From IMG/VR virus record IMGVR_UViG_3300045988_023625, positions 1 through 43,309 of that record: a stretch of 43,309 nt of DNA; one strand, written 5' to 3'. Position numbers and translations under genes: made by a program. The notes under the pieces were generated by a model. That model searched no databases, was not told where the DNA came from, and worked only from the letters and a program-made list of their open reading frames with translations. The stretch is from a virus. This document shows, one piece after another, positions 1,825-19,279 of the stretch; position 1 is the first letter of the stretch, and each line of letters begins with the position of its first letter.

Positions 1825-3480
1825 TTAGCCGTACACCCAGTTGATGGCATAGTTCTCGGTCGGCGTGGTCTCAACGTTCACCAGCGTCTGCTTGACGATG
1901 TTGCCGCTTGCGATGTAGTCGCTTCCGCGCGTCGCTGCCACAATGCCGCCCGAGCCGTTGCCCTTGAGGAGAGCGGTGGTGCTCGGTGCGCTGGCAATCG
2001 TTACCGCGCCCGTCTTGCCGTTGACCGATGTGACGGGATACGGCGGTGGATTTGCGGAAGAGTACTGTCTCTCATTTGCAACGTTGCCAAGGCCGACGTC
2101 GCTCTTACTCACGCTCTGCAACGCGCTGTCAGCCTTGCCCAAACTCGTCTGCACGTCGTCTGCAAGGTCAGTCTTAGCAACTTTGTCTTTGAATGCAAGA
2201 GCTTTGAGGTCGCCTAACCACTTGGCAATCTTACCAAGCAGTACCGACAGTTTCTCGCCGGTTGCGATGTTTGCACGGGTGCTCGCCGCAGTGAACGCCG
2301 CTGTGACGTTACTACCGTCGCCGGTCTTGTCCAGCTTGCCGGAAATGTCCTGATGCTGCGTCAGATAGCCGCTGTCGTTGGTGAGTTGAGAGGTCTTTGT
2401 GGGGATTTTAGCGCGAATGTCAGGGTGTGCCGTCTCGCTCTCGTTGTGTGCTTTGATTTGCGCGGACACATCCGGCGTGGGAATCTTACCAATCTCGTCA
2501 TCAACGTATTTGTAGATGTCCGTCCGCTTGCCCCGCGGGTCGTAGACGCTTGCGAGCATATCGCCAGCGCCTTGACCGTTCGCACCGTTATAGACCTCGA
2601 AGTCAAACGTCGTGCCGTCTGTCAGGGTGATGGTATATACGTCGCTCGTGCCGGGGGCGTGTGTGCCGCTCTTGAGCGCGATGCCGGAAATGCCGTTGCC
2701 GGGTGCACCCTGCGGGCCGATAGCGCCCGTGCCGCCGCGCGGAAGGCCGAAGACGAGCTTATAGACGTTGTCCACAAGGAATTTGCTCACCGTCGCGGGC
2801 TCGCCCGTCTCAAGCGTGACCGCCTCGACGATCATGTTGACGATGGCATCGCGCGCCGCTTGTGCATCGGTCTTTGCCGTCTCCGCCGCAGACTTGGCAG
2901 AAGCAGCGTCCTCGGCGCTCTGAGCGGCCTGTGTGGCTTTCTGCCCCGCAGAGGTCGAACTATCCGCCGCCGCGTTCTTTGCGCTCTCAGCGGCTTCCTG
3001 TGCCGATTCCGCCGCCGTCTTTGCGGTCTGTGCTCCGGTCTGCGCACTCTCCGCCGCTTTCTGCGCGTTGGCGGCGCCGGTCTGTGCGCCCTTTGCCGCC
3101 GTCTCAGACTTGGCAGCATTGTCCGCCGCCGTCTGCGCGGCCTGCACCTTCTCGTCGACGCCAGCCGCAGATGCAGCAGCAGCCGACGCAGAGGACGCCG
3201 CCGCCTTTGCCGACGCATCCGCCGCAGCAACCTTATCGTCAATGCCCTGTGCGGCGCCCGCGGCCTTTTCAGCCGATGCAGCCGCCGCGTCAGCCGATGC
3301 CTTGGCGTTGTCGGCATATTCCTTTACGCCCTGCACTTCTGCCGCAACAGCGTCCTTGGCGTACTGCACGACCTGACTGCCCTTGAGCTTCTTCGCCTCG
3401 CCGTTCTGCTGCAAGACGAAAAGGTCTTCTCCTGTGATTTGTAACGCTTGGGTGAGGTCGGAAATTGCTTTATCAGCCAT
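1825..3480 (-). CDS. Tail fibre protein with a long Ala-rich coiled-coil stalk
   Basis: 551 aa. N-terminus AISDLTQALQITGEDLFVLQQNGEAKKL is fibre-like. About 170 aa are Ala/Gln/Ser/Lys-rich low complexity, followed by a short G-x-y stretch (GTGAIGPQGAPGNG) and a globular C-terminus. Confidence 0.75.
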   Translation of the reverse strand: MADKAISDLTQALQITGEDLFVLQQNGEAKKLKGSQVVQYAKDAVAAEVQGVKEYADNAKASADAAAASAEKAAGAAQGIDDKVAAADASAKAAASSASAAAASAAGVDEKVQAAQTAADNAAKSETAAKGAQTGAANAQKAAESAQTGAQTAKTAAESAQEAAESAKNAAADSSTSAGQKATQAAQSAEDAASAKSAAETAKTDAQAARDAIVNMIVEAVTLETGEPATVSKFLVDNVYKLVFGLPRGGTGAIGPQGAPGNGISGIALKSGTHAPGTSDVYTITLTDGTTFDFEVYNGANGQGAGDMLASVYDPRGKRTDIYKYVDDEIGKIPTPDVSAQIKAHNESETAHPDIRAKIPTKTSQLTNDSGYLTQHQDISGKLDKTGDGSNVTAAFTAASTRANIATGEKLSVLLGKIAKWLGDLKALAFKDKVAKTDLADDVQTSLGKADSALQSVSKSDVGLGNVANERQYSSANPPPYPVTSVNGKTGAVTIASAPSTTALLKGNGSGGIVAATRGSDYIASGNIVKQTLVNVETTPTENYAINWVYG

Positions 3481-3682
3481 CAGTTACCTCGCTTTCCTTC
3501 TCGGGATTTGTCTTGCCCTCTTTGGCGGGCGGCTCGTCCGGCTTGTCCAACTCGGCAAAGGCATTTTCGAGGTTCTGCATCGCCATTGCCATGCGCTTAG
3601 CCTCGCTGCCCTTAACATAGATGCCGGTAATCATGGCATATGCACTGTTGATCTGCTCCCGCAGTTTGTTTTTGTCCATCAT
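3473..3682 (-). CDS. Small coiled-coil protein in the tail-fibre module (possible fibre assembly factor)
   Basis: Start MMDKNKL at 3682 after an AGGAGTGATA RBS. Its 3' end overlaps the start of the fibre gene. Confidence 0.55.
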   Translation of the reverse strand: MMDKNKLREQINSAYAMITGIYVKGSEAKRMAMAMQNLENAFAELDKPDEPPAKEGKTNPEKESEVTDG

Positions 3683-3690
3683 TATCACTC

Positions 3691-4116
3691 CTATCCTGAT
3701 ACGTTCCAACTGCCGGTATAGACGTATGCGTCGTATGCGTCCCAGCCGTTGGTGTAAATGTATGGGGTGTATGCTTGATTGTTGATGTATACGGCAGTGC
3801 TTGAGCTGTCGCTGTACGTCGTGGCTGTGCCCTCATCGCTGTAATCGGAGACTGTCCAATCGCCGTTCCAATAGAAGAGATTGCAGACCCACTCGTACTG
3901 CTCGCCGGGGGAAAGCCCTGTGATATAGCCCGAAAACGTACTCGTGCCGCCGCCCGTTTCCGCTGACGTAAACTCAAATGTTCCAACGCCGATGACGCGC
4001 ACGTCAATAGAGCGCTTATAGCTGTAATCATCTGCGCCTCCCGTGAATTTGGCATAGACTTCGAGCATCGTTCCGTCTCCATCCACCGGTGAGAGCGTGC
4101 AGTAAAATCGTGCCAT
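3691..4116 (-). CDS. Tail-module protein, beta-rich, function unknown
   Basis: 141-aa ORF, Tyr/Thr/Gly/Ser-rich, located between tail-tip and fibre genes. Confidence 0.6.
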   Translation of the reverse strand: MARFYCTLSPVDGDGTMLEVYAKFTGGADDYSYKRSIDVRVIGVGTFEFTSAETGGGTSTFSGYITGLSPGEQYEWVCNLFYWNGDWTVSDYSDEGTATTYSDSSSTAVYINNQAYTPYIYTNGWDAYDAYVYTGSWNVSG

Positions 4117-4124
4117 GTGTCACC

Positions 4125-5192
4125 TCACTGCAAAAGGAAGAACAGTTGACCGTACTGTGGGTTGCTTGGGAGCTTTGAGCCGTACATTTTCGAACCTACC
4201 AGCAGCGGCCCGCCGCCGAGGGATACAACATCACTTAGCGTAATAAATGCGCCGTCATAGGCAGAAAGATAAATCTTGCCTCCGGAATTGAGCTGAATGC
4301 CGCCATATGTCGTATTGATGGCAATGCCGTAGCCGGTCGTTGTGTAAGCAAGCTCGATACTGCCGATAGATTGATTGCTGCTTGCCAACAATTCGACTGT
4401 GCGCCCGCGCAGCTTTTCCGCCGTAATGCTCGTCTCGTCGATATACGTTTCGATAGCTCTATCGACCTCGCTTGCGCTTAGGCCTGCGTTGTTGTCGACA
4501 TAGGTTTTCGTTGCGTAGTTCGAGCCGTCCTTGAGATCGCCGACGCGGATGCTGCCGGTCTGGATTTGGTCAGCCGTCAGCGTACCCTTGATATTTGCCG
4601 CAGCAACGTACAGATTGTCCGTCTTGATGCTGCTGCCGTTGATCTTGGTCGTGCCGCTCGCGTCCGTCACCGTCAGGCCGTCCAGCGTGGTCTTGACCTC
4701 GGTGTACTTGCCGTCGATCCCCTCGACCTTGAGCATGATCTCCTCGCTCGTCTTGGTGATGATGGAACGAGTTTGAGCAATCTTTCGGTCAAATTCCTGT
4801 TTGATATAACCTCCGGATGGATATTCGTCATCCATCTCCAACTCACCAGGGGAGGCAATATCTGCGTACCCTCGCCCGTTATCAGCAATGCGAGAAAGCG
4901 GAGAATAGACCCCTCCGACATTCACGCCGTCGCCAAGCTCCGCGGCGGGGTCGATGTTAGCCGCGCCAGCTTCGTATGCCTGATATCGATACCCTTTCAT
5001 TCGTTGCAGCAAGGCGTTTACCATCGCTTGTGTTGCGTGAGGGCAACTTGCAGTGATCTCCATGCCGGTATCATCGCCAGCCGTCAAGCTGTTCTCGTCA
5101 TCCACAAGCAGCGTCACACGGGAGATAGGCTTGTACTTGCCATTGTCGGCAAAGCTTGTAACGTCTCCGCCGACGTAATATTTTTCAGACAA
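4125..5192 (-). CDS. Tail tip/baseplate-associated fibre-like protein
   Basis: 355-aa ORF overlapping the upstream gene by 8 nt. The central region has fibre-like repeats (KINGSSIKTDNLYVAAANIKGTLTADQIQTGSIRVGDL). Confidence 0.6.
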   Translation of the reverse strand: MSEKYYVGGDVTSFADNGKYKPISRVTLLVDDENSLTAGDDTGMEITASCPHATQAMVNALLQRMKGYRYQAYEAGAANIDPAAELGDGVNVGGVYSPLSRIADNGRGYADIASPGELEMDDEYPSGGYIKQEFDRKIAQTRSIITKTSEEIMLKVEGIDGKYTEVKTTLDGLTVTDASGTTKINGSSIKTDNLYVAAANIKGTLTADQIQTGSIRVGDLKDGSNYATKTYVDNNAGLSASEVDRAIETYIDETSITAEKLRGRTVELLASSNQSIGSIELAYTTTGYGIAINTTYGGIQLNSGGKIYLSAYDGAFITLSDVVSLGGGPLLVGSKMYGSKLPSNPQYGQLFFLLQ

Positions 5193-5862
5193 GGATTCTC
5201 ACCCCTCCAAATGTGATAGCGTTGCCCGCTTCTGTAATAAGATAGTTCGTCTCAGCAGGCATGGACAACAGCGGGATAAGCAATAGTTTTCCTGCATCGG
5301 TAATAATCCAGTTCCCGCCGTGCGCCGCTGCGATAAAACATAGCTCATTGCGGATAGTGTAGTCGTTTGCAGGATAGTCGATGGTATATGAGTTGTTGAG
5401 CACTGTGCGGCTGTCCAGCTCCACGCTCATCAACTGGCAAAAAATATTTACAGCGTCAGGCATAGTCATCGGGAAGTTAAGCGACTGGTCTGGTTCCCAC
5501 ACAACGTCCGCTTTACGCATTGCGTCATATGCTTCGACCTCCCAATAATCGCCGTCGCGAGAGCGCTTGTTGGTAAAAAACACGCCCTTTGAAATCCACG
5601 CGGTCACCTGAGAGCCGTTTACCAGCCTGAGATAGCGCTTGATCGTCGCGGCGCGCGGGATATTGTCTGCAATGACTGCAAGTTTTAACGTCGCGCAACA
5701 GGCATTGCCAATCCCGAACTCCTCAAACAACTGCGATTCAACGGAGTGGGAAACTTCTGCATCTTTTCCGTACTCTACGTCGTTGATGACAAATTTGAAT
5801 TCGCGCTCCGTCCCGGGCTTGTGGAGCAAATCATGCCACAGCGCACTTGTTGTCTGCCCCAT
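5185..5862 (-). CDS. Tail component downstream of the tape measure (Dit/Tal position)
   Basis: 225-aa ORF. The call rests on synteny only. Confidence 0.5.
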   Translation of the reverse strand: MGQTTSALWHDLLHKPGTEREFKFVINDVEYGKDAEVSHSVESQLFEEFGIGNACCATLKLAVIADNIPRAATIKRYLRLVNGSQVTAWISKGVFFTNKRSRDGDYWEVEAYDAMRKADVVWEPDQSLNFPMTMPDAVNIFCQLMSVELDSRTVLNNSYTIDYPANDYTIRNELCFIAAAHGGNWIITDAGKLLLIPLLSMPAETNYLITEAGNAITFGGVRILV

Positions 5863-5863
5863 G

Positions 5864-6223
5864 TTACACCTCGATCAAATTAAACGTCGCGCCGCCCCAC
5901 ACCTCGTTATCGTCTGCCGCTTCTTCAAGCGTGCATTCCATCGACGAGCAATAAAACGTGCTGGTTCTCACGCCGTGCAGGTCGAGGTATTGAACGGTAC
6001 AGGTGGTTTTATTGAGATCATCATCAAGTTTTGCCAGCACCTCGCGTTTAACGGAGCGCGTTGTATAGCTCAGTTTCCGTTTTGTGGTGATCTTGTCGCG
6101 CCGCATCTTGCCATCTTTGGTACGGGTGGTCTTGTCGCTGTCAAGGTCGTTTCTGCTCCACCCGTACCCTTTCGTTGCGATTGCGGACGAGTAATCCGTG
6201 CCGTTGATAATAAGGACTTCCAT
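5864..6223 (-). CDS. Small tail component immediately after the tape measure
   Basis: 119-aa ORF. Its stop lies 1 nt from the start of the next gene. The call rests on synteny only. Confidence 0.5.
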   Translation of the reverse strand: MEVLIINGTDYSSAIATKGYGWSRNDLDSDKTTRTKDGKMRRDKITTKRKLSYTTRSVKREVLAKLDDDLNKTTCTVQYLDLHGVRTSTFYCSSMECTLEEAADDNEVWGGATFNLIEV

Positions 6224-12202: not shown

Positions 12203-13414
12203 TTAAGAAACGGTAACAGTGGCAGTGCCGGTCTTCGTGCTGTCCTGCTTGGACTTGGCCGTAACGGTGATACTGGTCTTAGTCTCAGCGGAGTCGATAG
12301 TCAGCAAGCCGTCTTCGCTGATTTTGGACTTCGTGCCATTCTGGCTCCACTCGACCTCGCCGTTGATAATGCCCTCGCCGGTAACAGCAGCAGTAAACGA
12401 CTTGCTGTCGCCCTTTGCCATCGTCGCGGTAGCGGGCGAGACGGTAACAGCAGAGATGTCGCCGCCCTTGCCGTAAACAGAGAACGGGAACGGATTTGCC
12501 TTTTCTGCATTGTAGGCGTTGATGGGGTTCGCAATCTCCCAGCCCAGACGCATGACCGCACGCAGCGCGACCATATCGTTCTGCATGAGGTTGTATGTGA
12601 TAGCCTTCGTGGTGGGGTCCTGAATAACGCCCTCGGTGAAGATCTTGAAGGTCATGTCCTGACGAATGGCATAAACCAGCTGGCTCCAGTCACCCACAAT
12701 CATCTGAGCCTGGGCGGGGTCGAAAGCGCCGTTCATGGGGAAATACATATCCATGCCGTCCAGCCCGTAGCGGGTCGCGCCCTGCATATCGGACTTGAAA
12801 ATGGGCTGTCCGGTGGTGTCCTTCAAACCGCGCAGCTTACCGCGCATCTGGATGGCGGACATGACGCCGTTGGGGTTAAATCCGTCCAGCTCCACCTTGG
12901 CGATCAGCCCGTTCTCGCCCATGATGTCGTCAAAGACGCTGGCCCCGACGGGCACACCGTTACCGGCAGCGATAGCAGCGGGTACAACGCCAGTGCGCCA
13001 AGTGCTGGGTTTGTTGGTGCCGAACAGAATAGCCGCGTCAATGACCTTGCCGAAAGCCTCGGTCAGACGGGGCTTGACCTCGCCCCAAATGTCATAGTCC
13101 GCATCATCGAGAGCGGCCTCGGGAATGGGGACGATGACCGCGATCTCCTCGGCGTACAGTTTCTTCTTGTCCCACGCCATCTTGGTGGTCTGCTTGAATG
13201 CCTCACCGGCGCCGCCGTCAGTGGCCTCGCCGTTGACGAAATACGCGGAGGGAAGTGCGTCAAGCACGTTGATGGTCTGCGTCTTGCTGGACATATTCGC
13301 CAGCCTGCGGCCCATACGAAGGACAGCAGATTCGGCGATAGCGCCCTGCATGATCTCGCGGGTTACGGGTTCCGGAATAAGGCCGGAAAGTGCGGAACGA
13401 TCAATAGTTGCCAT
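12203..13414 (-). CDS. HK97-fold major capsid protein with a C-terminal Big_2-like Ig domain
   Basis: 403 aa. Capsid-family N-terminal and central region. The C-terminal ~85 aa (VTVSPATATMAKGDSKSFTAAVTGEG...TVTAKSKQDSTKTGTATVTVS) look like a bacterial Ig-like group 2 domain. Confidence 0.85.
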   Translation of the reverse strand: MATIDRSALSGLIPEPVTREIMQGAIAESAVLRMGRRLANMSSKTQTINVLDALPSAYFVNGEATDGGAGEAFKQTTKMAWDKKKLYAEEIAVIVPIPEAALDDADYDIWGEVKPRLTEAFGKVIDAAILFGTNKPSTWRTGVVPAAIAAGNGVPVGASVFDDIMGENGLIAKVELDGFNPNGVMSAIQMRGKLRGLKDTTGQPIFKSDMQGATRYGLDGMDMYFPMNGAFDPAQAQMIVGDWSQLVYAIRQDMTFKIFTEGVIQDPTTKAITYNLMQNDMVALRAVMRLGWEIANPINAYNAEKANPFPFSVYGKGGDISAVTVSPATATMAKGDSKSFTAAVTGEGIINGEVEWSQNGTKSKISEDGLLTIDSAETKTSITVTAKSKQDSTKTGTATVTVS

Positions 13415-14850: not shown

Positions 14851-14980
14851 ACGTGGAAGTGTATTTGATTGTTTTCTTGACCTCTAAGACAATGTACCCA
14901 TAGCCTTTTCGACGTATCTCTGCGTCGTTGCCGCGCTTCAAAATTGCATCGATTGCCTTTTTGACTTCTTCCCAGTTCAA
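14849..14980 (-). CDS. Possible 43-aa protein with a TTG start coupled to the MuF stop
   Basis: Not in the track because it is under 60 aa. TTG at 14980 overlaps the MuF TGA (TTGA), and an AAGGAG lies 5 nt upstream. Translation: LNWEEVKKAIDAILKRGNDAEIRRKGYGYIVLEVKKTIKYTST. Confidence 0.4.
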   Translation of the reverse strand: MNWEEVKKAIDAILKRGNDAEIRRKGYGYIVLEVKKTIKYTST

Positions 14981-16170
14981 TACAGCTCCTTTGTCCTTTC
15001 CCGTTGCAGCGGCAACCCCGCCGCTTCACTAAAAGCCTTATATTTGGCGATCAGTCTTACAAGTTTCGCTTCTGCGGCATAATATTCGTCCTTTTGCTCG
15101 CTTGCCTTATACGCTGTTACAAGCCTGTCCTGCTTGATAATCTGGCGCTCAACACGCCGTTGCATCTGCGTCGCCTCGTATGCGGTGTATTTCTTCCCGT
15201 CAAACTCGCAGCCGAGATCATCATCAATATGCTCAAGCTGCTCATCTGTATATGTGCGTTCGCTTACGCCCTCAACCCAAACGTTGCGGCGATGGCGGCA
15301 GTTTGCGCCCTCCAGCCCGTCCACAGCGCCAAGGCCGCACACCTCGTAGATGTTCGGGTAGATGTCACCTGCGCGAATACTGTATACCTTGCCTTGCCAA
15401 TCCTTATGGCTCGACCACGGTGACGGCCCCGGCTTATCTCTCGCGCCAGCATGGGCGGAAACCTCGAAATGCGGAGTTTCGAGATACTGCGCCGACTGCT
15501 CCGTATATTTAGCGCAAATTTGATTTACGCCGGTCATCACGGCTCTGCGCACCGCCACATCGATTTGATCTCGATGGCCGCTTTCGTAGTCAACGACCTT
15601 CAAGCCGCTGTCCGCAAGCTGCTTTACCGCCGTCTTGATAGCTTGATTATAGTTGATTGCACCGCTCTGGATTTGCATTGTAGCGTTATCCAGCGCCCAT
15701 TGGTACGCTTTTGCAGGTGAAAGCATCGTCCGCCCAGCGTCTACCAGAAAGCCCATAGATGCGGTTAGGTTGCGGAATGTATCAAGTGTCTGCGTCCTGA
15801 TTGCATCCACCGTGGCAGCATCAACCAGCGTCTTGGGCTGGATGATGTGTGCAAGGTCGATAAGCTCGGTGTAATACTTCTGGTTTCGTTCTACCACATC
15901 GTCCAGCAGCTCTTTCAGCTTCTTTTCACTGATGCCAGTGGTCTTGCGGATTGCCTTTTCGATGTCCTTCAGGTCGATGCCATGCGACCGAAGCGCTTTT
16001 ATATCCTGTACCGTAACCTCGTTGAGCTGATCTGCCAGCTTCAAGCGGCTGCATATCTCGTCAAGCAGCGTATCTTCAAGAGACCGGAACAGCTCCGCCA
16101 GTTCTTCCGGGAGAGCATCCAGTAGTTCAGGAGTAAAAGGATACTTTTTCACGCCTTTTTCTTCTTCCAC
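14977..16170 (-). CDS. Minor head protein, SPP1 gp7 / Mu F family
   Basis: 397 aa. The region HFEVSAHAGARDKPGPSPWSSHKDWQGKVYSI...GANCRHRR resembles the MuF C-terminal core. The track start is a GTG at 16170. A GTG at 16152 that overlaps the upstream stop (GTGA) is an alternative. Confidence 0.8.
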   Translation of the reverse strand: MEEEKGVKKYPFTPELLDALPEELAELFRSLEDTLLDEICSRLKLADQLNEVTVQDIKALRSHGIDLKDIEKAIRKTTGISEKKLKELLDDVVERNQKYYTELIDLAHIIQPKTLVDAATVDAIRTQTLDTFRNLTASMGFLVDAGRTMLSPAKAYQWALDNATMQIQSGAINYNQAIKTAVKQLADSGLKVVDYESGHRDQIDVAVRRAVMTGVNQICAKYTEQSAQYLETPHFEVSAHAGARDKPGPSPWSSHKDWQGKVYSIRAGDIYPNIYEVCGLGAVDGLEGANCRHRRNVWVEGVSERTYTDEQLEHIDDDLGCEFDGKKYTAYEATQMQRRVERQIIKQDRLVTAYKASEQKDEYYAAEAKLVRLIAKYKAFSEAAGLPLQRERTKELY

Positions 16171-16697
16171 TTAAAGGAATATTTAACGCCAGCGGCCTTT
16201 GCAAACTTGGCGTATGCGTTATTTGTCGCTTCCGTTTGTGCTCTTATGCTTGCTTCTCTGGCTTCCTGCACGCTTTTATACTTTCCCGCCTTATAATCAG
16301 CCGATACCTTACTCGCTGCTTCTCTTACGGCGCGGCGCACGGCATTGTGATTATATGCGAGTGTTTCATAAAATCCCTTGTTGTGTGGTCCTGATAATGT
16401 AAACGTTGCATACCGGCTTTCAATTATGATTGCTTTTGCTCCTGATTTTTGCCATGTTTCAATATCTTTCAGGGACGGGACAGGGAGAACACCCTCCGGG
16501 TGGTTGTGTAAAACAATATTCCCTTTATAGTCGGCATCTCCGTATCCTGTATGTTGAGCTGTTCCTTGCTCTTTGTAGAGCAAATCGCCCGATGGAGAGA
16601 ACACAAAAAGATGTTCTTTTTTCAGATTGGCGATTTTTGATCGGGTAGCATTTATTGATGAAAATCCAAAGCTCCCGCTTCCTCCGCGTCCGCCCAT
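16149..16697 (-). CDS. Protein with a RadC/JAB-like HNHP...S..D motif and an N-terminal MGGRGGSG
   Basis: 182 aa with a strong RBS (CGGAGGAAAGCAAA-ATG). The motif is NIVLHNHPEGVLPVPSLKDI; JAMM is HxHx7Sx2D and here the spacer is 8. Lys-rich C-terminus. AT-rich by eye. Confidence 0.5.
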   Translation of the reverse strand: MGGRGGSGSFGFSSINATRSKIANLKKEHLFVFSPSGDLLYKEQGTAQHTGYGDADYKGNIVLHNHPEGVLPVPSLKDIETWQKSGAKAIIIESRYATFTLSGPHNKGFYETLAYNHNAVRRAVREAASKVSADYKAGKYKSVQEAREASIRAQTEATNNAYAKFAKAAGVKYSFKWKKKKA

Positions 16698-17314
16698 TTT
16701 GCTTTCCTCCGTTTCACAATTTCGTCATAGTGCGGCTTTACTCGAATTACATTCCAGTCGCATTCTTCCGGCACTTTTCCGTAGAATATCACCCATTCCG
16801 GTGAGAGACGCTTCATCATTTCTTCGTAACCGCGCAGGAAGAGCCGCTTGCTTTCCTTGTTCTGCTGTGTGCCTACCGAACTAACCGCAACAATTCCGCC
16901 GACAGGCTCGCCATCAAAGCACCAACCGTAACTGCGCTCATCGCTCCATGATACAGAGGGGTAAACCGTCATGCCGTGCATTTGCCAGTATGCCGCCAAC
17001 CAATGCTTGCGGTAATGGTTGTATATCTGCATCGCCAGCGGCATATCTGTGTAAGTGGAGAAGTCCGGCGCGCACACCGCCGCAAACTGCGACAGTTTCG
17101 GAATGTACTTGTCCGGCGTGTTCCAATACCGAATGAATTGATAATCGTCAACAAAGAAATGCACGATTTTGCTCGCCGGGTCTTTTGCCGTGTAATGGTA
17201 ATTCACGGGGATAAAATCACCTTGTGGGTATGCCTTGACCGGCTCAATCTGCGGAATATCGTACTTGCCCACGCCGGGGAATGTGAACTTTTCGAGATTT
17301 TCAAAGTTAATCAT
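16652..17314 (-). CDS. DUF4417-like protein
   Basis: Start MINFENLEKF at 17314 overlaps the upstream stop (ATGA). Motifs recalled for DUF4417: VHFFVDDYQF..W, PDFSTYTDMP..MQIYNHYRKHW, SVSWSD..SYGWCFDGEP. Confidence 0.6.
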   Translation of the reverse strand: MINFENLEKFTFPGVGKYDIPQIEPVKAYPQGDFIPVNYHYTAKDPASKIVHFFVDDYQFIRYWNTPDKYIPKLSQFAAVCAPDFSTYTDMPLAMQIYNHYRKHWLAAYWQMHGMTVYPSVSWSDERSYGWCFDGEPVGGIVAVSSVGTQQNKESKRLFLRGYEEMMKRLSPEWVIFYGKVPEECDWNVIRVKPHYDEIVKRRKAKWADAEEAGALDFHQ

Positions 17315-17787
17315 ACCGGACGCCATGTACCGCTGCGCTTGTTAGCCCTGCGGTATTTCTTGCCGTTTACCGTAACTTCCAACGCGCCGGACTTTTGCGC
17401 TGTTACAAAGGCATTGGAAAACGACTTGTTTTCTGCTGCTTTGCGGTTTTTATTGGACTGGTCACGCAATTTCCGCATGTAGCTATCCATTTCACCGCGC
17501 GCTCTTGCGGCTCTGTCTGCGGCGCTTCCTGTTTTCTGCGCCGTTGTCAGGCGCGCAGGCCCGCTTGCATAAGGATTGACTGCTCCTGCCGCCGTTTTGA
17601 GCGCCGTTGTTGCGAGAGTTGCCATCTGCTTTACTGCGTCTTTCTTTTCAGCGTCCGACAGCTCAAGCCCATTGATTTCAGCAGCGTTGCGCTCAAATGT
17701 GCGCCTGATAATATCGCCCATATCAGTGACAGACGCAGCGTTTGCTCGGTTAATATCCTGCTGTGACAAAAACCGTGCAAGGCTCAT
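17311..17787 (-). CDS. Basic hypothetical protein between portal and MuF; the true N-terminus may lie upstream
   Basis: 158-aa ORF. The same frame stays open upstream and encodes NGGRGGAGNGIGAGEPGRGRG with no start codon (see findings). Confidence 0.55.
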   Translation of the reverse strand: MSLARFLSQQDINRANAASVTDMGDIIRRTFERNAAEINGLELSDAEKKDAVKQMATLATTALKTAAGAVNPYASGPARLTTAQKTGSAADRAARARGEMDSYMRKLRDQSNKNRKAAENKSFSNAFVTAQKSGALEVTVNGKKYRRANKRSGTWRPV

Positions 17788-17848
17788 ACCGCGACCACGC
17801 CCAGGTTCTCCGGCTCCAATGCCGTTACCTGCTCCCCCTCTACCGCCA

Positions 17849-19279
17849 TTACTCTACCTCCGTTTCTTCCTCGGTCGTCATTTCCTGCATCTTCGGCAGC
17901 GCCGCCTTTGCGGTCGCTTCGTCTTCGTTAAGCCACTTCATGCGGAATTCCCAATCGTTCATGATGCCAGCTTGCAAAAGCTGCATATCGCGGGAAAAGT
18001 CGGTCTGCTTGTCCTCAATGATGCTATCATCAAAGTCGATGGATATTTCCACTTCCTCATTCAGCCCAGCGTTCATGGCCGTGTTGCCCAGCCAAAGCAG
18101 AATGCGGCACAGTTCCACAAGCGCCTGTTCCAGCACAATCTCATGCTTTTTGATGGTGCGGAACATGGTGGAGTTTTCGCTGATAACTTGCGTTGCTGTC
18201 GCGACGCTTCCGCCGTCAAAGCGGTAATAGGTCTCGCCGAAACCGCACTTACTGGACAGTACATTCAGTTGGTCTTGAAGTCCTACATTCAGCTGCTCGG
18301 TTCTTAGTGTCGGGGAAATTGTCTCTACGACGTTTCCTTGCTGCGTATCCTCCGGGAGCAGATAGAAACGCCGGTCATGGTCATCAAGCGTCGGTTCACC
18401 GTCTTCCCACCTTGTGGCGGGAATTTTGACCATCATCATCATCGGGCCGTTTTCGAACTCGTTGACATAGCAGTCATAGGCACAGTCAACGCCGCGCAGA
18501 ACATCAATCGCGTTTGCATACACAGGGATACCAACCGGAAGCAGGTAGTCAAGATTGTTTGCGATGTTCGGTCTGTCGATGACGAACTGCCTCTTGTCGC
18601 TTCCCGTATGTACCACAGGGGGGATTCGCTCAAAGCCCGGAACATCGGTGAGCAGCGCGTCGGCAAGCGTTTCATTTTCGTATCGGTAAATGCTGTTCTC
18701 GATGACGTAAAGTCCGGTTTCGTCTTTCCGGTGAATCTGCAAATACAGATAATTCTTTCCGGCTCGGGTGACTACGCTGTCGAACGCGCATTCTGTGATA
18801 AATCCATTCTGCCAAGCCAGCGGAAAGATGTGCTCAATCGTCACATAGTCCAGCTCGATTCCGGAAACATCACCAGGCACAATCTCGCCGCTTTCGTTGA
18901 CGGCCTGCCCCACCACACGCGGAATGTACGCCACAGTTCCGAGCGCTGACTTCATTTCCTGCATTTCGTTTGCCTTGACCGTGAAGTTGTTCGCTGTCAG
19001 GACGCTATCAACGAACGCCTGTTCTTTCTGCCCTTCAAGTGTGATCTGGACTTTCTCATTCATCAAGAGGTTTGCCCAGTCCTCGCAAACCTTTTTCGCC
19101 ATACCGAGGCTTGCACGGTTGCACTTTGTCCACTTATGCCCGTTATATCGCCGGTATTGATGAAAATCCTTTACTTTCCCAACATACCAAGACTTCCAGA
19201 GGTCAACTTGGCTGTAAAAATCTTCCGGGATTGTCGTATAGCCAAGTTCTTTTAACTTTTGGATAACTGCACTGCTCAT
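17849..19279 (-). CDS. Portal protein (SPP1 Gp6-like)
   Basis: 476 aa, directly after terL with an ATGA overlap. Portal-like sequence throughout and an acidic C-terminus. Confidence 0.85.
   Translation of the reverse strand: MSSAVIQKLKELGYTTIPEDFYSQVDLWKSWYVGKVKDFHQYRRYNGHKWTKCNRASLGMAKKVCEDWANLLMNEKVQITLEGQKEQAFVDSVLTANNFTVKANEMQEMKSALGTVAYIPRVVGQAVNESGEIVPGDVSGIELDYVTIEHIFPLAWQNGFITECAFDSVVTRAGKNYLYLQIHRKDETGLYVIENSIYRYENETLADALLTDVPGFERIPPVVHTGSDKRQFVIDRPNIANNLDYLLPVGIPVYANAIDVLRGVDCAYDCYVNEFENGPMMMMVKIPATRWEDGEPTLDDHDRRFYLLPEDTQQGNVVETISPTLRTEQLNVGLQDQLNVLSSKCGFGETYYRFDGGSVATATQVISENSTMFRTIKKHEIVLEQALVELCRILLWLGNTAMNAGLNEEVEISIDFDDSIIEDKQTDFSRDMQLLQAGIMNDWEFRMKWLNEDEATAKAALPKMQEMTTEEETEVE

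Follow-up and report, generated by a model that had tools for sequence, protein, structure and literature searches.

The 43,309-nucleotide (nt) stretch of viral DNA analyzed here, IMG/VR record IMGVR_UViG_3300045988_023625 (the window), carries three genes inserted between its portal gene and its MuF-type minor capsid gene. Our results suggest that these genes represent a modular cassette of Firmicutes phages, in which one constant gene, encoding a DUF4417 protein, is combined with interchangeable genes whose products share an N-terminal GGRG tag and are probably delivered from the capsid as effectors. DUF4417 would be a helper of these effectors and not itself a cargo. We put the probability of this reading at about one half. 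The original prediction had taken all three genes for separately encoded, capsid-delivered effectors. The variability of the slot that they occupy, the membership of one of them, judged by its conserved residues, in a true JAB family that is fused to MuF elsewhere, and the toxin domains of sister cargoes all favor that view, but it does not hold for DUF4417.

The insertion stands as it had been described, with all five genes on the minus strand. The portal gene (17849..19279) is followed by a gene for a 158-residue protein, p158 (17311..17787), which is indeed basic (isoelectric point [pI] of 10.6), then by the gene for the 224-residue DUF4417 protein (16652..17326), a gene for a 182-residue GGRG-tagged, JAB/MPN+-like protein, JAB182 (16149..16697), and the gene for a MuF2-type minor capsid protein, Phage_min_cap2 (14977..16170). 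The p158 gene overlaps the start of the DUF4417 gene by 16 nt, and the DUF4417 and JAB182 genes overlap by 46 nt. The JAB182 gene is richer in AT than the genes around it, as had been noticed (G+C fraction of 0.452, and of 0.40 at third codon positions, versus 0.50 to 0.53 and about 0.60 for its neighbors). The upstream border of the slot is formed by the portal protein, which is of the SPP1/A118 type (PF05133, E = 1.3e-14; phrog_533, E = 6.5e-111; TIGR01542, E = 4e-49), and the downstream border is formed by the minor capsid protein (PF06152, 281 bits, E = 1.7e-83; phrog_581, E = 3.5e-90), whose start is ambiguous between a GTG at 16170 and a GTG at 16152. Its PF06152 match and its place in the head module downstream of the portal make it a MuF2 protein, PF06152 being MuF2 by the definition of Jamet 2017 (PMC5576092). 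That muf normally comes right after the portal gene, which was the premise of the original prediction, is stated in the same paper (PMC5576092).

The comparison of portal-MuF junctions in related phages rests on a scan of IMG/VR with the window MuF protein, which yielded 80 loci in which MuF is 82 to 94% identical, 78 of them with both portal and MuF. Slot open reading frames (ORFs) were called in these loci, in the GenBank gut-phage contigs L001 and L002, and in the window. Across the 78 loci, the gap between portal and MuF ranges from 0 to 3283 nt, and it is effectively empty (0 to 43 nt) in about 25 of them, that is, in about a third of the close relatives, so nothing in the slot can be essential. 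The filled slots hold one to seven genes, for which more than 20 architectures were counted. The same cargo sets accompany either of two unrelated portal/TerL types, and the slot content is evidently shuffled. The expectation of a variable cargo slot was thereby borne out. DUF4417 is found in nearly every filled slot. Three loci (L012, L013, and L014, at about 2700-6000) have two copies, in the order portal, tagged 147-residue protein, DUF4417, p158, phrog_9479, DUF4417, JAB182, MuF, and these two-copy slots suggest that the cassette duplicates or stacks as a unit. In relatives, the portal gene and the first slot gene overlap, the TAA of the one running into the start codon of the other (TAATG). 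In an AT-rich phage (L084/L085, 9017-10497), the portal gene is followed by a gene for a 313-residue MuF-like protein without a Pfam match and then by a separate 174-residue CdiA_C toxin gene that has no GGRG.

The tag, MGG[RSKG]G, starts 83 of the 92 slot ORFs that do not encode DUF4417, belonging to at least 10 families without other similarity, and it starts none of the 55 DUF4417 ORFs found in slots. Typical leaders are MGGRGGAGGG, MGGRGASSG, and MGGRGGSGS. When about 1.0 Mb of these loci was considered as a whole, tagged ORFs of 50 residues or more numbered 86, and 85 of them proved to lie inside the slot, which makes up 7.8% of that DNA. The sole tagged ORF outside the portal-MuF slot in the window clade, of 86 residues, lies upstream of an apparently shortened portal ORF (4458-5573) in L032 (4165-5573), an arrangement that may reflect a rearrangement or a chimeric assembly.

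The codons that spell the tag vary between families and positions (AGA, CGC, or CGT for Arg; GGA, GGC, or GGT for Gly). MGGRG is also kept in distant homologs, at 25 to 46% identity for JAB182 and 38 to 65% for p158, in which the next 10 to 25 residues cannot be aligned, and it persists in hosts of differing G+C content. The differing codons and this persistence argue that the tag is under constraint at the level of the protein. The DNA of the portal 3' end and the leader is nearly identical among first-position slot genes of different families (ATGGGCGGTAGAGGTGGAGCCGGTGGC). It is therefore likely that the tag also serves as a recombination joint. Two other explanations of the tag were tried and rejected. 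The tagged genes are not expressed as fusions to portal or DUF4417 by frameshifting or readthrough: every one of them has a Shine-Dalgarno sequence and a start of its own, no slippery site is present, and the spacing runs from a 46-nt overlap to a 150-nt gap. Nor is the tag a by-product of an overlapping DUF4417 C terminus (KW..EE), since the distance between DUF4417 and the tagged gene varies from -46 to about +150 nt and conservation of the tag is just as strong where a portal stop, another cargo gene, or a Prp pro-peptide precedes it. Our full-text literature searches, which covered the tag, DUF4417, and packaged MuF-associated effectors, revealed no published description of the GGRG tag or of its pairing with DUF4417.

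Methionine aminopeptidase takes off the initiator Met when Gly follows, and MGGRG proteins are therefore expected to have GGRG as their N terminus. Nine cargo genes start in another way, with M(K)LN(I/L)Q(L/M/F)F or MLKIDLQFF and with GGRG immediately after it (L171, two genes in L183, L186, L190, L205, L206, L207, and P0229/L214). In Firmicutes, ribosomal protein L27 has this motif as an N-terminal extension, which the host cysteine protease Prp removes by cutting behind the last Phe or Leu, and the capsid and scaffold proteins of phage 80alpha use the same Prp motif (PMC9405229, PMC5744158). Since Prp cleavage and Met removal would give the same N terminus, the conserved and selected feature would appear to be a free, exposed Gly-Gly-Arg-Gly.

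The pairing of DUF4417 with tagged genes extends well beyond the window clade. In an A25-type clade, whose DUF4417 proteins are 49 to 98% identical to that of Streptococcus phage A25 and about 40% identical to that of the window, 63 of 80 loci have tagged ORFs, in arrays of one to three tagged genes starting a few nucleotides past the DUF4417 stop. In a clade in which DUF4417 is fused to ParB_N, tagged ORFs occur in 33 of 36 loci. Tagged ORFs distant from DUF4417 are almost absent from the scanned loci, and the rule of a tagged gene adjoining an untagged DUF4417 gene holds in three clades. The contig of one distant tagged protein has ParB_N-DUF4417, then (V)GGRGASS-JAB, then terS, terL, and portal; another has DUF4417, then an MGGRGASSG p158-like protein, then terS; and further contigs show JAB followed by DUF4417 or DUF4417 followed by a tagged JAB protein of 304 residues. 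Because the pair lies upstream of terS in other clades, what is conserved is the association of DUF4417 with GGRG-tagged proteins and not the portal-MuF position.

Cultured phages carry the pair as well. In A25, gp22 is DUF4417 and gp23 is the tagged protein (L091, 5001-5411), whose true start (MGGRGASSG) is located 27 nt ahead of the annotated start. The same offset recurs in L092 and L216, where, as for A25 gp23, the public annotation starts at an internal Met 27 nt downstream of MGGRG, which looks like an annotation error. The pair was read directly in A25, in the Javan258 prophage, in Str01, and in Dorea phage DO134P1 (gp19/gp18), and tblastn matches were also obtained in A1, phiNJ2, phiST1, SA01, MissD, many Javan prophages, Roseburia phage Jekyll, and Str01 itself. 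The Javan prophage records label DUF4417 a "DNA modification methylase," which likewise looks like an annotation error.

The assignment of the middle gene of the insertion to DUF4417 is secure (PF14386, 194.7 bits against a cut-off of 28.9, E = 1.3e-57, profile positions 4 to 179 of 183; also phrog_8680 and phrog_940). The family has more than 3,000 relatives in the protein database; the literature treats it simply as a domain of unknown function, one that phages often carry fused to ParB-CTPase folds. At about 40% identity, the residues that stay invariant are one His, three Asp, two Arg, and one each of Ser, Asn, Gln, and Cys, a pattern that looks like that of an enzyme. A structural model of good confidence (predicted local distance difference test [pLDDT] of 85) had no neighbor at E < 0.01 when compared with the PDB by Foldseek; the weak matches were to TIM-barrel-like (beta/alpha-barrel) folds, with a best E of 0.014 and template modeling (TM) scores below 0.4. 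Strict adjacency to tagged genes, absence of the tag, and these enzyme-like residues point to DUF4417 as a helper that recognizes or processes the tag, whether as an adaptor or as an enzyme, and it is on these grounds that we depart from its earlier description as one of three equivalent cargoes. A role as an immunity protein was considered and rejected, given that DUF4417 stays constant while the adjoining toxin families change.

JAB182 is the tagged gene of the window. Its leader, MGGRGGSGSFG, lies at 16665-16697, and the protein has a pI of 9.9. The segment HNHPEGVLPVPSLKD that had drawn attention is present (H64-D78; 16464..16508, minus strand), with the second His and the Ser separated by 8 residues (PEGVLPVP) where RadC has 7, and together with E28 (16614-16616) it forms the JAMM motif E...HxH...S..D. 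An exhaustive phmmer search gave 33 relatives, 24 of which were aligned; at 13 to 90% identity, their sole invariant columns are E28, H64, N65, H66, P67, S75, and D78. The superfamily residues (Glu, HxH, Ser, and Asp) are thus all present and invariant in the 24 members, and homology of the HNHP region to JAB domains, on which the original prediction depended, is supported on this basis.

Membership in RadC itself was rejected. Across the family, the spacer between the second His and the Ser is anywhere from 6 to 15 residues long, and it departs in the window protein from the 7-residue spacing of RadC (HNHPSG-x3-PS-x2-D), and the RadC profiles stay below their gathering scores (PF04002, 13.6 bits versus 22.1, E = 0.064; TIGR00608, 12.8 versus 133.85). 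A profile of the JAB182 family matched the PDB RadC entry 2qlc with an E of only 0.15, and the RadC profile aligns KEHLFV and HNHPxG...PS..D in the family. Among the 24 members, sub-threshold matches fell to Toxin-JAB1 (8 members), Prok-JAB (7), and RadC (7), with best E values of 0.0015 to 0.0095. A search of the PDB with the JAB182 sequence returned nothing significant, and the PADLOC defense library gave weak JAB matches only (E = 0.006 to 0.02) and none for the other window proteins. The AlphaFold model of JAB182 has a pLDDT of 69, with residues 1 to 13 below 50. At that confidence, its top five PDB matches are chains of RadC 2qlc (E = 0.03 to 0.09, TM of 0.25 to 0.38), followed by BRCC36, and its matches in BFVD include viral RadC and MPN proteins (E = 3e-3 to 1e-2) and three "minor capsid proteins" (E = 5e-8 to 2.5e-4). 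Of the earlier label "RadC/JAB-like," the JAB part therefore stands and the RadC part does not: judged by its conserved residues, JAB182 is a divergent JAB/MPN+ family. We predict that it is a metal-dependent JAB hydrolase, one that could act on peptide or isopeptide bonds or on a nucleic acid.

JAB182 accounts for 14 slot ORFs, always directly after DUF4417 and just before muf. Related JAB domains are also found as covalent parts of MuF proteins: C-terminal fusions link the domain to Phage_Mu_F (P0020, P0024, and P0031), to Phage_min_cap2 together with an ADP-ribosyltransferase (P0037), and to MuF in gp13 of the cultured Dorea phage DO134P1. None of these fused copies has GGRG ahead of the domain, as would be expected if the tag substitutes for covalent attachment. 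Other relatives have different sequences in front of the JAB domain or elsewhere. The motif KFNPYHDxxGRF(S/T)T stands ahead of the JAB domain in P0019 and P0022, and in P0026 and P0030, which are polyproteins with an XkdF protease, it occurs twice, at the N terminus and ahead of an internal domain (residues 13 and 299, and residues 16 and 340, respectively); P0008 and P0009 have a "WVT..G..GRxIxI"-like start instead. These KFNPYHDxxGRF and WVT-type starts may be alternative leaders or linkers with a role like that of GGRG.

The other candidate cargo of the window, p158, has no Pfam, PHROG, or PADLOC family, and profile searches of these three collections revealed no recognizable domain. Its 86 homologs all stand alone, measure about 170 to 215 residues, and mostly start with MGGRG, down to 38% identity. 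A 21-residue leader, MGGRGGAGGGIGAGEPGRGRG, is present in 33 of 35 p158 homologs, and the window protein is a truncated form. In the window, 20 leader codons are still in frame (17847-17788), and translation and DNA alignment with L001 and L002 identify the remnant, GGRGGAGNGIGAGEPGRGRG (17788..17847, minus strand), which has no start codon. Relative to L001 and L002, a 1-nt deletion in a G-run, from ATGGGCGG to ATGGCGG, cuts the leader from its ATG; the displaced ATG (17849-17847) opens a 21-codon ORF whose TGA (17786-17784) overlaps the p158 start (ATGA). Either the window carries a genuine tag-loss allele, or the assembly is in error at this homopolymer. A different frameshift affects the same gene in L076.

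When the tagged ORFs were clustered with the leader removed, about 30 unrelated cargo families resulted. They include an ADP-ribosyltransferase exoenzyme (ADPrib_exo_Tox, E = 8.7e-15), a papain-fold glutamine deamidase toxin (Gln_amidase, E = 2.2e-11), a weak PARP/ART-PolyVal match, and one family with an HEYGH motif. The commonest family, phrog_9479, is Ntox24-like in 5 of 13 members (best E = 5.7e-5), and a sequence search of the PDB with it gave nothing significant. ADP-ribosyltransferase, papain-fold, and Ntox24 domains are listed among MuF-delivered toxins (Zhang 2012, PMC3482391; Jamet 2017, PMC5576092), and effectors fused to MuF are predicted to be packaged in the head (PMC3482391; PMC5512222; PMC5576092).

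Taken together, these observations lead us to propose the following mechanism. The tag would be exposed as the mature N terminus when the initiator Met is lost or when, as in some phages, Prp cuts, and would serve as a common handle by which otherwise unrelated effectors are recognized. DUF4417 would be the cognate helper, an adaptor or an enzyme acting on the tag. The tagged proteins would enter the procapsid near the portal and MuF, leave with the DNA, and act early in the next cell; loading and ejection are suggested by the MuF fusions and by the position of the cassette. In the window, p158 and JAB182 would be the cargoes. A more ambitious version of this proposal, which we offer tentatively and with some doubt, is that DUF4417 and GGRG constitute a distinct trafficking or processing system, in which the free GGRG is recognized or chemically used by a DUF4417 enzyme so that dozens of unrelated toxins and anti-defense enzymes are loaded for injection.

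Several observations weigh against capsid delivery with DUF4417 as helper. In most clades, the pair lies upstream of terS and not inside the head module, and the window p158 has lost its tag. P0001, the representative of a 127-member cluster and 96% identical to JAB182, has HNRPEG in place of HNHPEG, and with the second metal-binding His replaced, some JAB182 alleles may be catalytically inactive. DUF4417 is without a solved structural neighbor or a known activity, and its frequent fusion to ParB_N could equally fit a DNA-directed role. The only virion proteome found for a carrier of the pair is negative: the 12 proteins reported after stringent filtering of liquid chromatography-tandem mass spectrometry data from cesium chloride-purified Str01 virions include neither DUF4417 (APZ81899) nor the tagged protein (APZ81907), although this proteome is shallow and even MuF is near its detection limit.

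Much of this would suit an account in which the tagged proteins are never packaged and instead are intracellular effectors or toxins, expressed late or from the prophage, that act on the host during infection or are released at lysis, with DUF4417 activating, modifying, or restraining them through GGRG in the producing cell. The usual location of the pair at the boundary between replication and late modules, upstream of terS, and its absence from the Str01 protein list are what such proteins would show, and the invariant His, Cys, Asp, Arg, and Ser of DUF4417 and its common ParB_N fusions fit an enzyme at work inside the cell. This account has more difficulty with the window clade, in which the cassette lies within the head operon between portal and MuF, with the covalent fusion of JAB and ADP-ribosyltransferase cargo domains to MuF in other phages, and with the Prp motif, which is otherwise known from capsid, scaffold, and tail proteins. 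We consider it unlikely, if by no means far-fetched. The location in the head module that counts against it has a different meaning if the slot genes encode accessory structural or assembly proteins (internal head, DNA-condensing, or scaffold-like) and the tag serves assembly contacts. The strongly basic character of p158 and JAB182 is compatible with such functions, as is the fact that many cargo families are small, rich in Lys and Arg, and devoid of a recognizable enzyme domain. Yet a slot that about a third of close relatives leave empty is dispensable for assembly, several cargo families are recognizable toxin enzymes, and JAB182 keeps a complete catalytic motif, all of which makes a structural role quite improbable.

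Least probable, and in our judgment very unlikely, is that the MGGRG start has no function in the protein and is merely a conserved DNA joint, formed together with the 3' end of portal or DUF4417 and the ribosome-binding site, for cassette exchange by homologous recombination, or else a context for translation initiation. The near identity of portal 3' end and leader DNA across first-position genes (ATGGGCGGTAGAGGTGGAGCCGGTGGC) is what recombination would leave behind, but the tag is spelled with different Arg and Gly codons from one family or position to another, the overlap with DUF4417 on the upstream side runs from -27 to +150 nt, the tag survives in distant homologs and at differing host G+C contents, and in nine genes GGRG stands behind a Prp pro-peptide and not at the start codon. 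We retain the tag as a protein feature, and a probably capsid-delivered cassette with DUF4417 as its helper as the preferred reading.

The remainder of the region agrees with a head-packaging module of a siphovirus-like phage or prophage, the host of which is roughly known to be a human-gut member of the Clostridia; near-identical genes are found in metagenome-assembled genomes of a Ruminococcaceae member and of an Intestinimonas member. On the minus strand, TerS (20878-20507, PF03592) and TerL (20517-19276) precede the portal gene, and the scaffold (13928-13431) and the HK97-type major capsid protein (13414-12203) follow muf. In the major capsid protein (12203-13414, minus strand), the HK97-type Phage_capsid domain is accompanied by an Ig-like Big_2 domain at the C terminus (residues ~322-393; E = 2e-4, narrowly missing the cut-off). 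Between muf and the scaffold gene, the segment 14054-14900 has a G+C fraction of 0.43 and a reversed AT skew and contains a minus-strand gene for an 81-residue RHH/HicB/TacA-like protein and two plus-strand ORFs (65 and 90 residues) without a family; relatives have other genes in its place. Here the head module seems to have gained a second accessory ("moron") insertion.

If the proposed reading is correct, DUF4417, a family without known function, gains a testable role, and dozens of orphan phage protein families gain a common logic. Should the tag direct capsid loading, a simple rule, M-GGRG next to DUF4417, would find injected effectors in gut and streptococcal phages and would open a large set of candidate anti-defense or toxin proteins. 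A short, portable tag could also provide a handle for loading proteins into therapeutic phages, and the Prp-motif variants tie a host ribosomal protease to the maturation of phage cargo. The pair is carried by the cultured phages A25, Str01, and DO134P1, and experiments are therefore feasible.

The idea of head-packaged, MuF-linked effectors is a known one; the separate GGRG-tagged form, the obligatory DUF4417 neighbor, and the Prp-motif variants are apparently undescribed. Among JAB families, JAB182 shares with RadC (PF04002), Prok-JAB (PF14464), and Toxin-JAB1 (PF15659) the E...HNHP.G...S..D motif, and RadC 2qlc is its best fold match in the PDB; it differs from them in a C-terminal helical hairpin, a terminal strand ending in AK..GY, and the variable spacer. 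The polyvalent proteins (Iyer 2017, PMC5512222) resemble our cargoes in that RadC-type JAB domains, ADP-ribosyltransferases, 2H phosphoesterases, and ParB-like domains are delivered early, with "solo" versions noted, and some JAB182 relatives occur in polyproteins with an XkdF protease and 2H/Acb1-like domains. They differ in having at least two domains, where each of the three window proteins has one, and the polyproteins related to JAB182 repeat another pre-domain motif, KFNPYHDxxGRF; DUF4417 is not mentioned in that survey (0 occurrences in PMC5512222). Closest of all are the MuF polymorphic toxins of temperate Firmicutes phages, in which variable effector domains are likewise tied to the portal-MuF part of the genome, the repertoire likewise includes ADP-ribosyltransferase, Ntox24, papain-fold, and JAB-like domains, and homologs of JAB182 are true C-terminal fusions (PMC3482391, PMC5576092). 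Neither the tag nor DUF4417 is mentioned in Zhang 2012 (PMC3482391) or Jamet 2017 (PMC5576092). The proteins described here, in contrast, are encoded by separate genes upstream of muf or even of terS, have their own GGRG tag, and always lie beside DUF4417; JAB182 has its own ribosome-binding site and start, whereas the fusion is realized in P0020, P0024, P0031, P0037, and DO134P1 gp13.

Two systems in other phages offer parallels. In T4, the internal proteins IPI-III and Alt have a capsid targeting sequence of about 10 to 20 residues that binds the scaffold core and is removed by the prohead protease gp21. In phage P1, the head-packaged effectors of the Dar system (DarA/Hdf/DarB) depend on adjoining helper genes, and the helpers are themselves head components. 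We know of no common N-terminal tag for P1 Dar, which is like the cassette in its helper-dependent packaging and has no sequence relation to it. The likeness to T4 lies in a short N-terminal peptide, common to unrelated proteins, that would route them to the procapsid for injection; the difference lies in the dedicated partner gene, DUF4417, and in a GGRG that stands at the mature N terminus, and no prohead protease was seen between the portal and major capsid genes of the window. The packaging of Alt in T4 is also cited in the account of polyvalent proteins (Iyer 2017, PMC5512222). If the more ambitious version of our proposal is true, the DUF4417-GGRG system would be a standalone counterpart of the T4 capsid targeting sequence and of covalent fusion to MuF.

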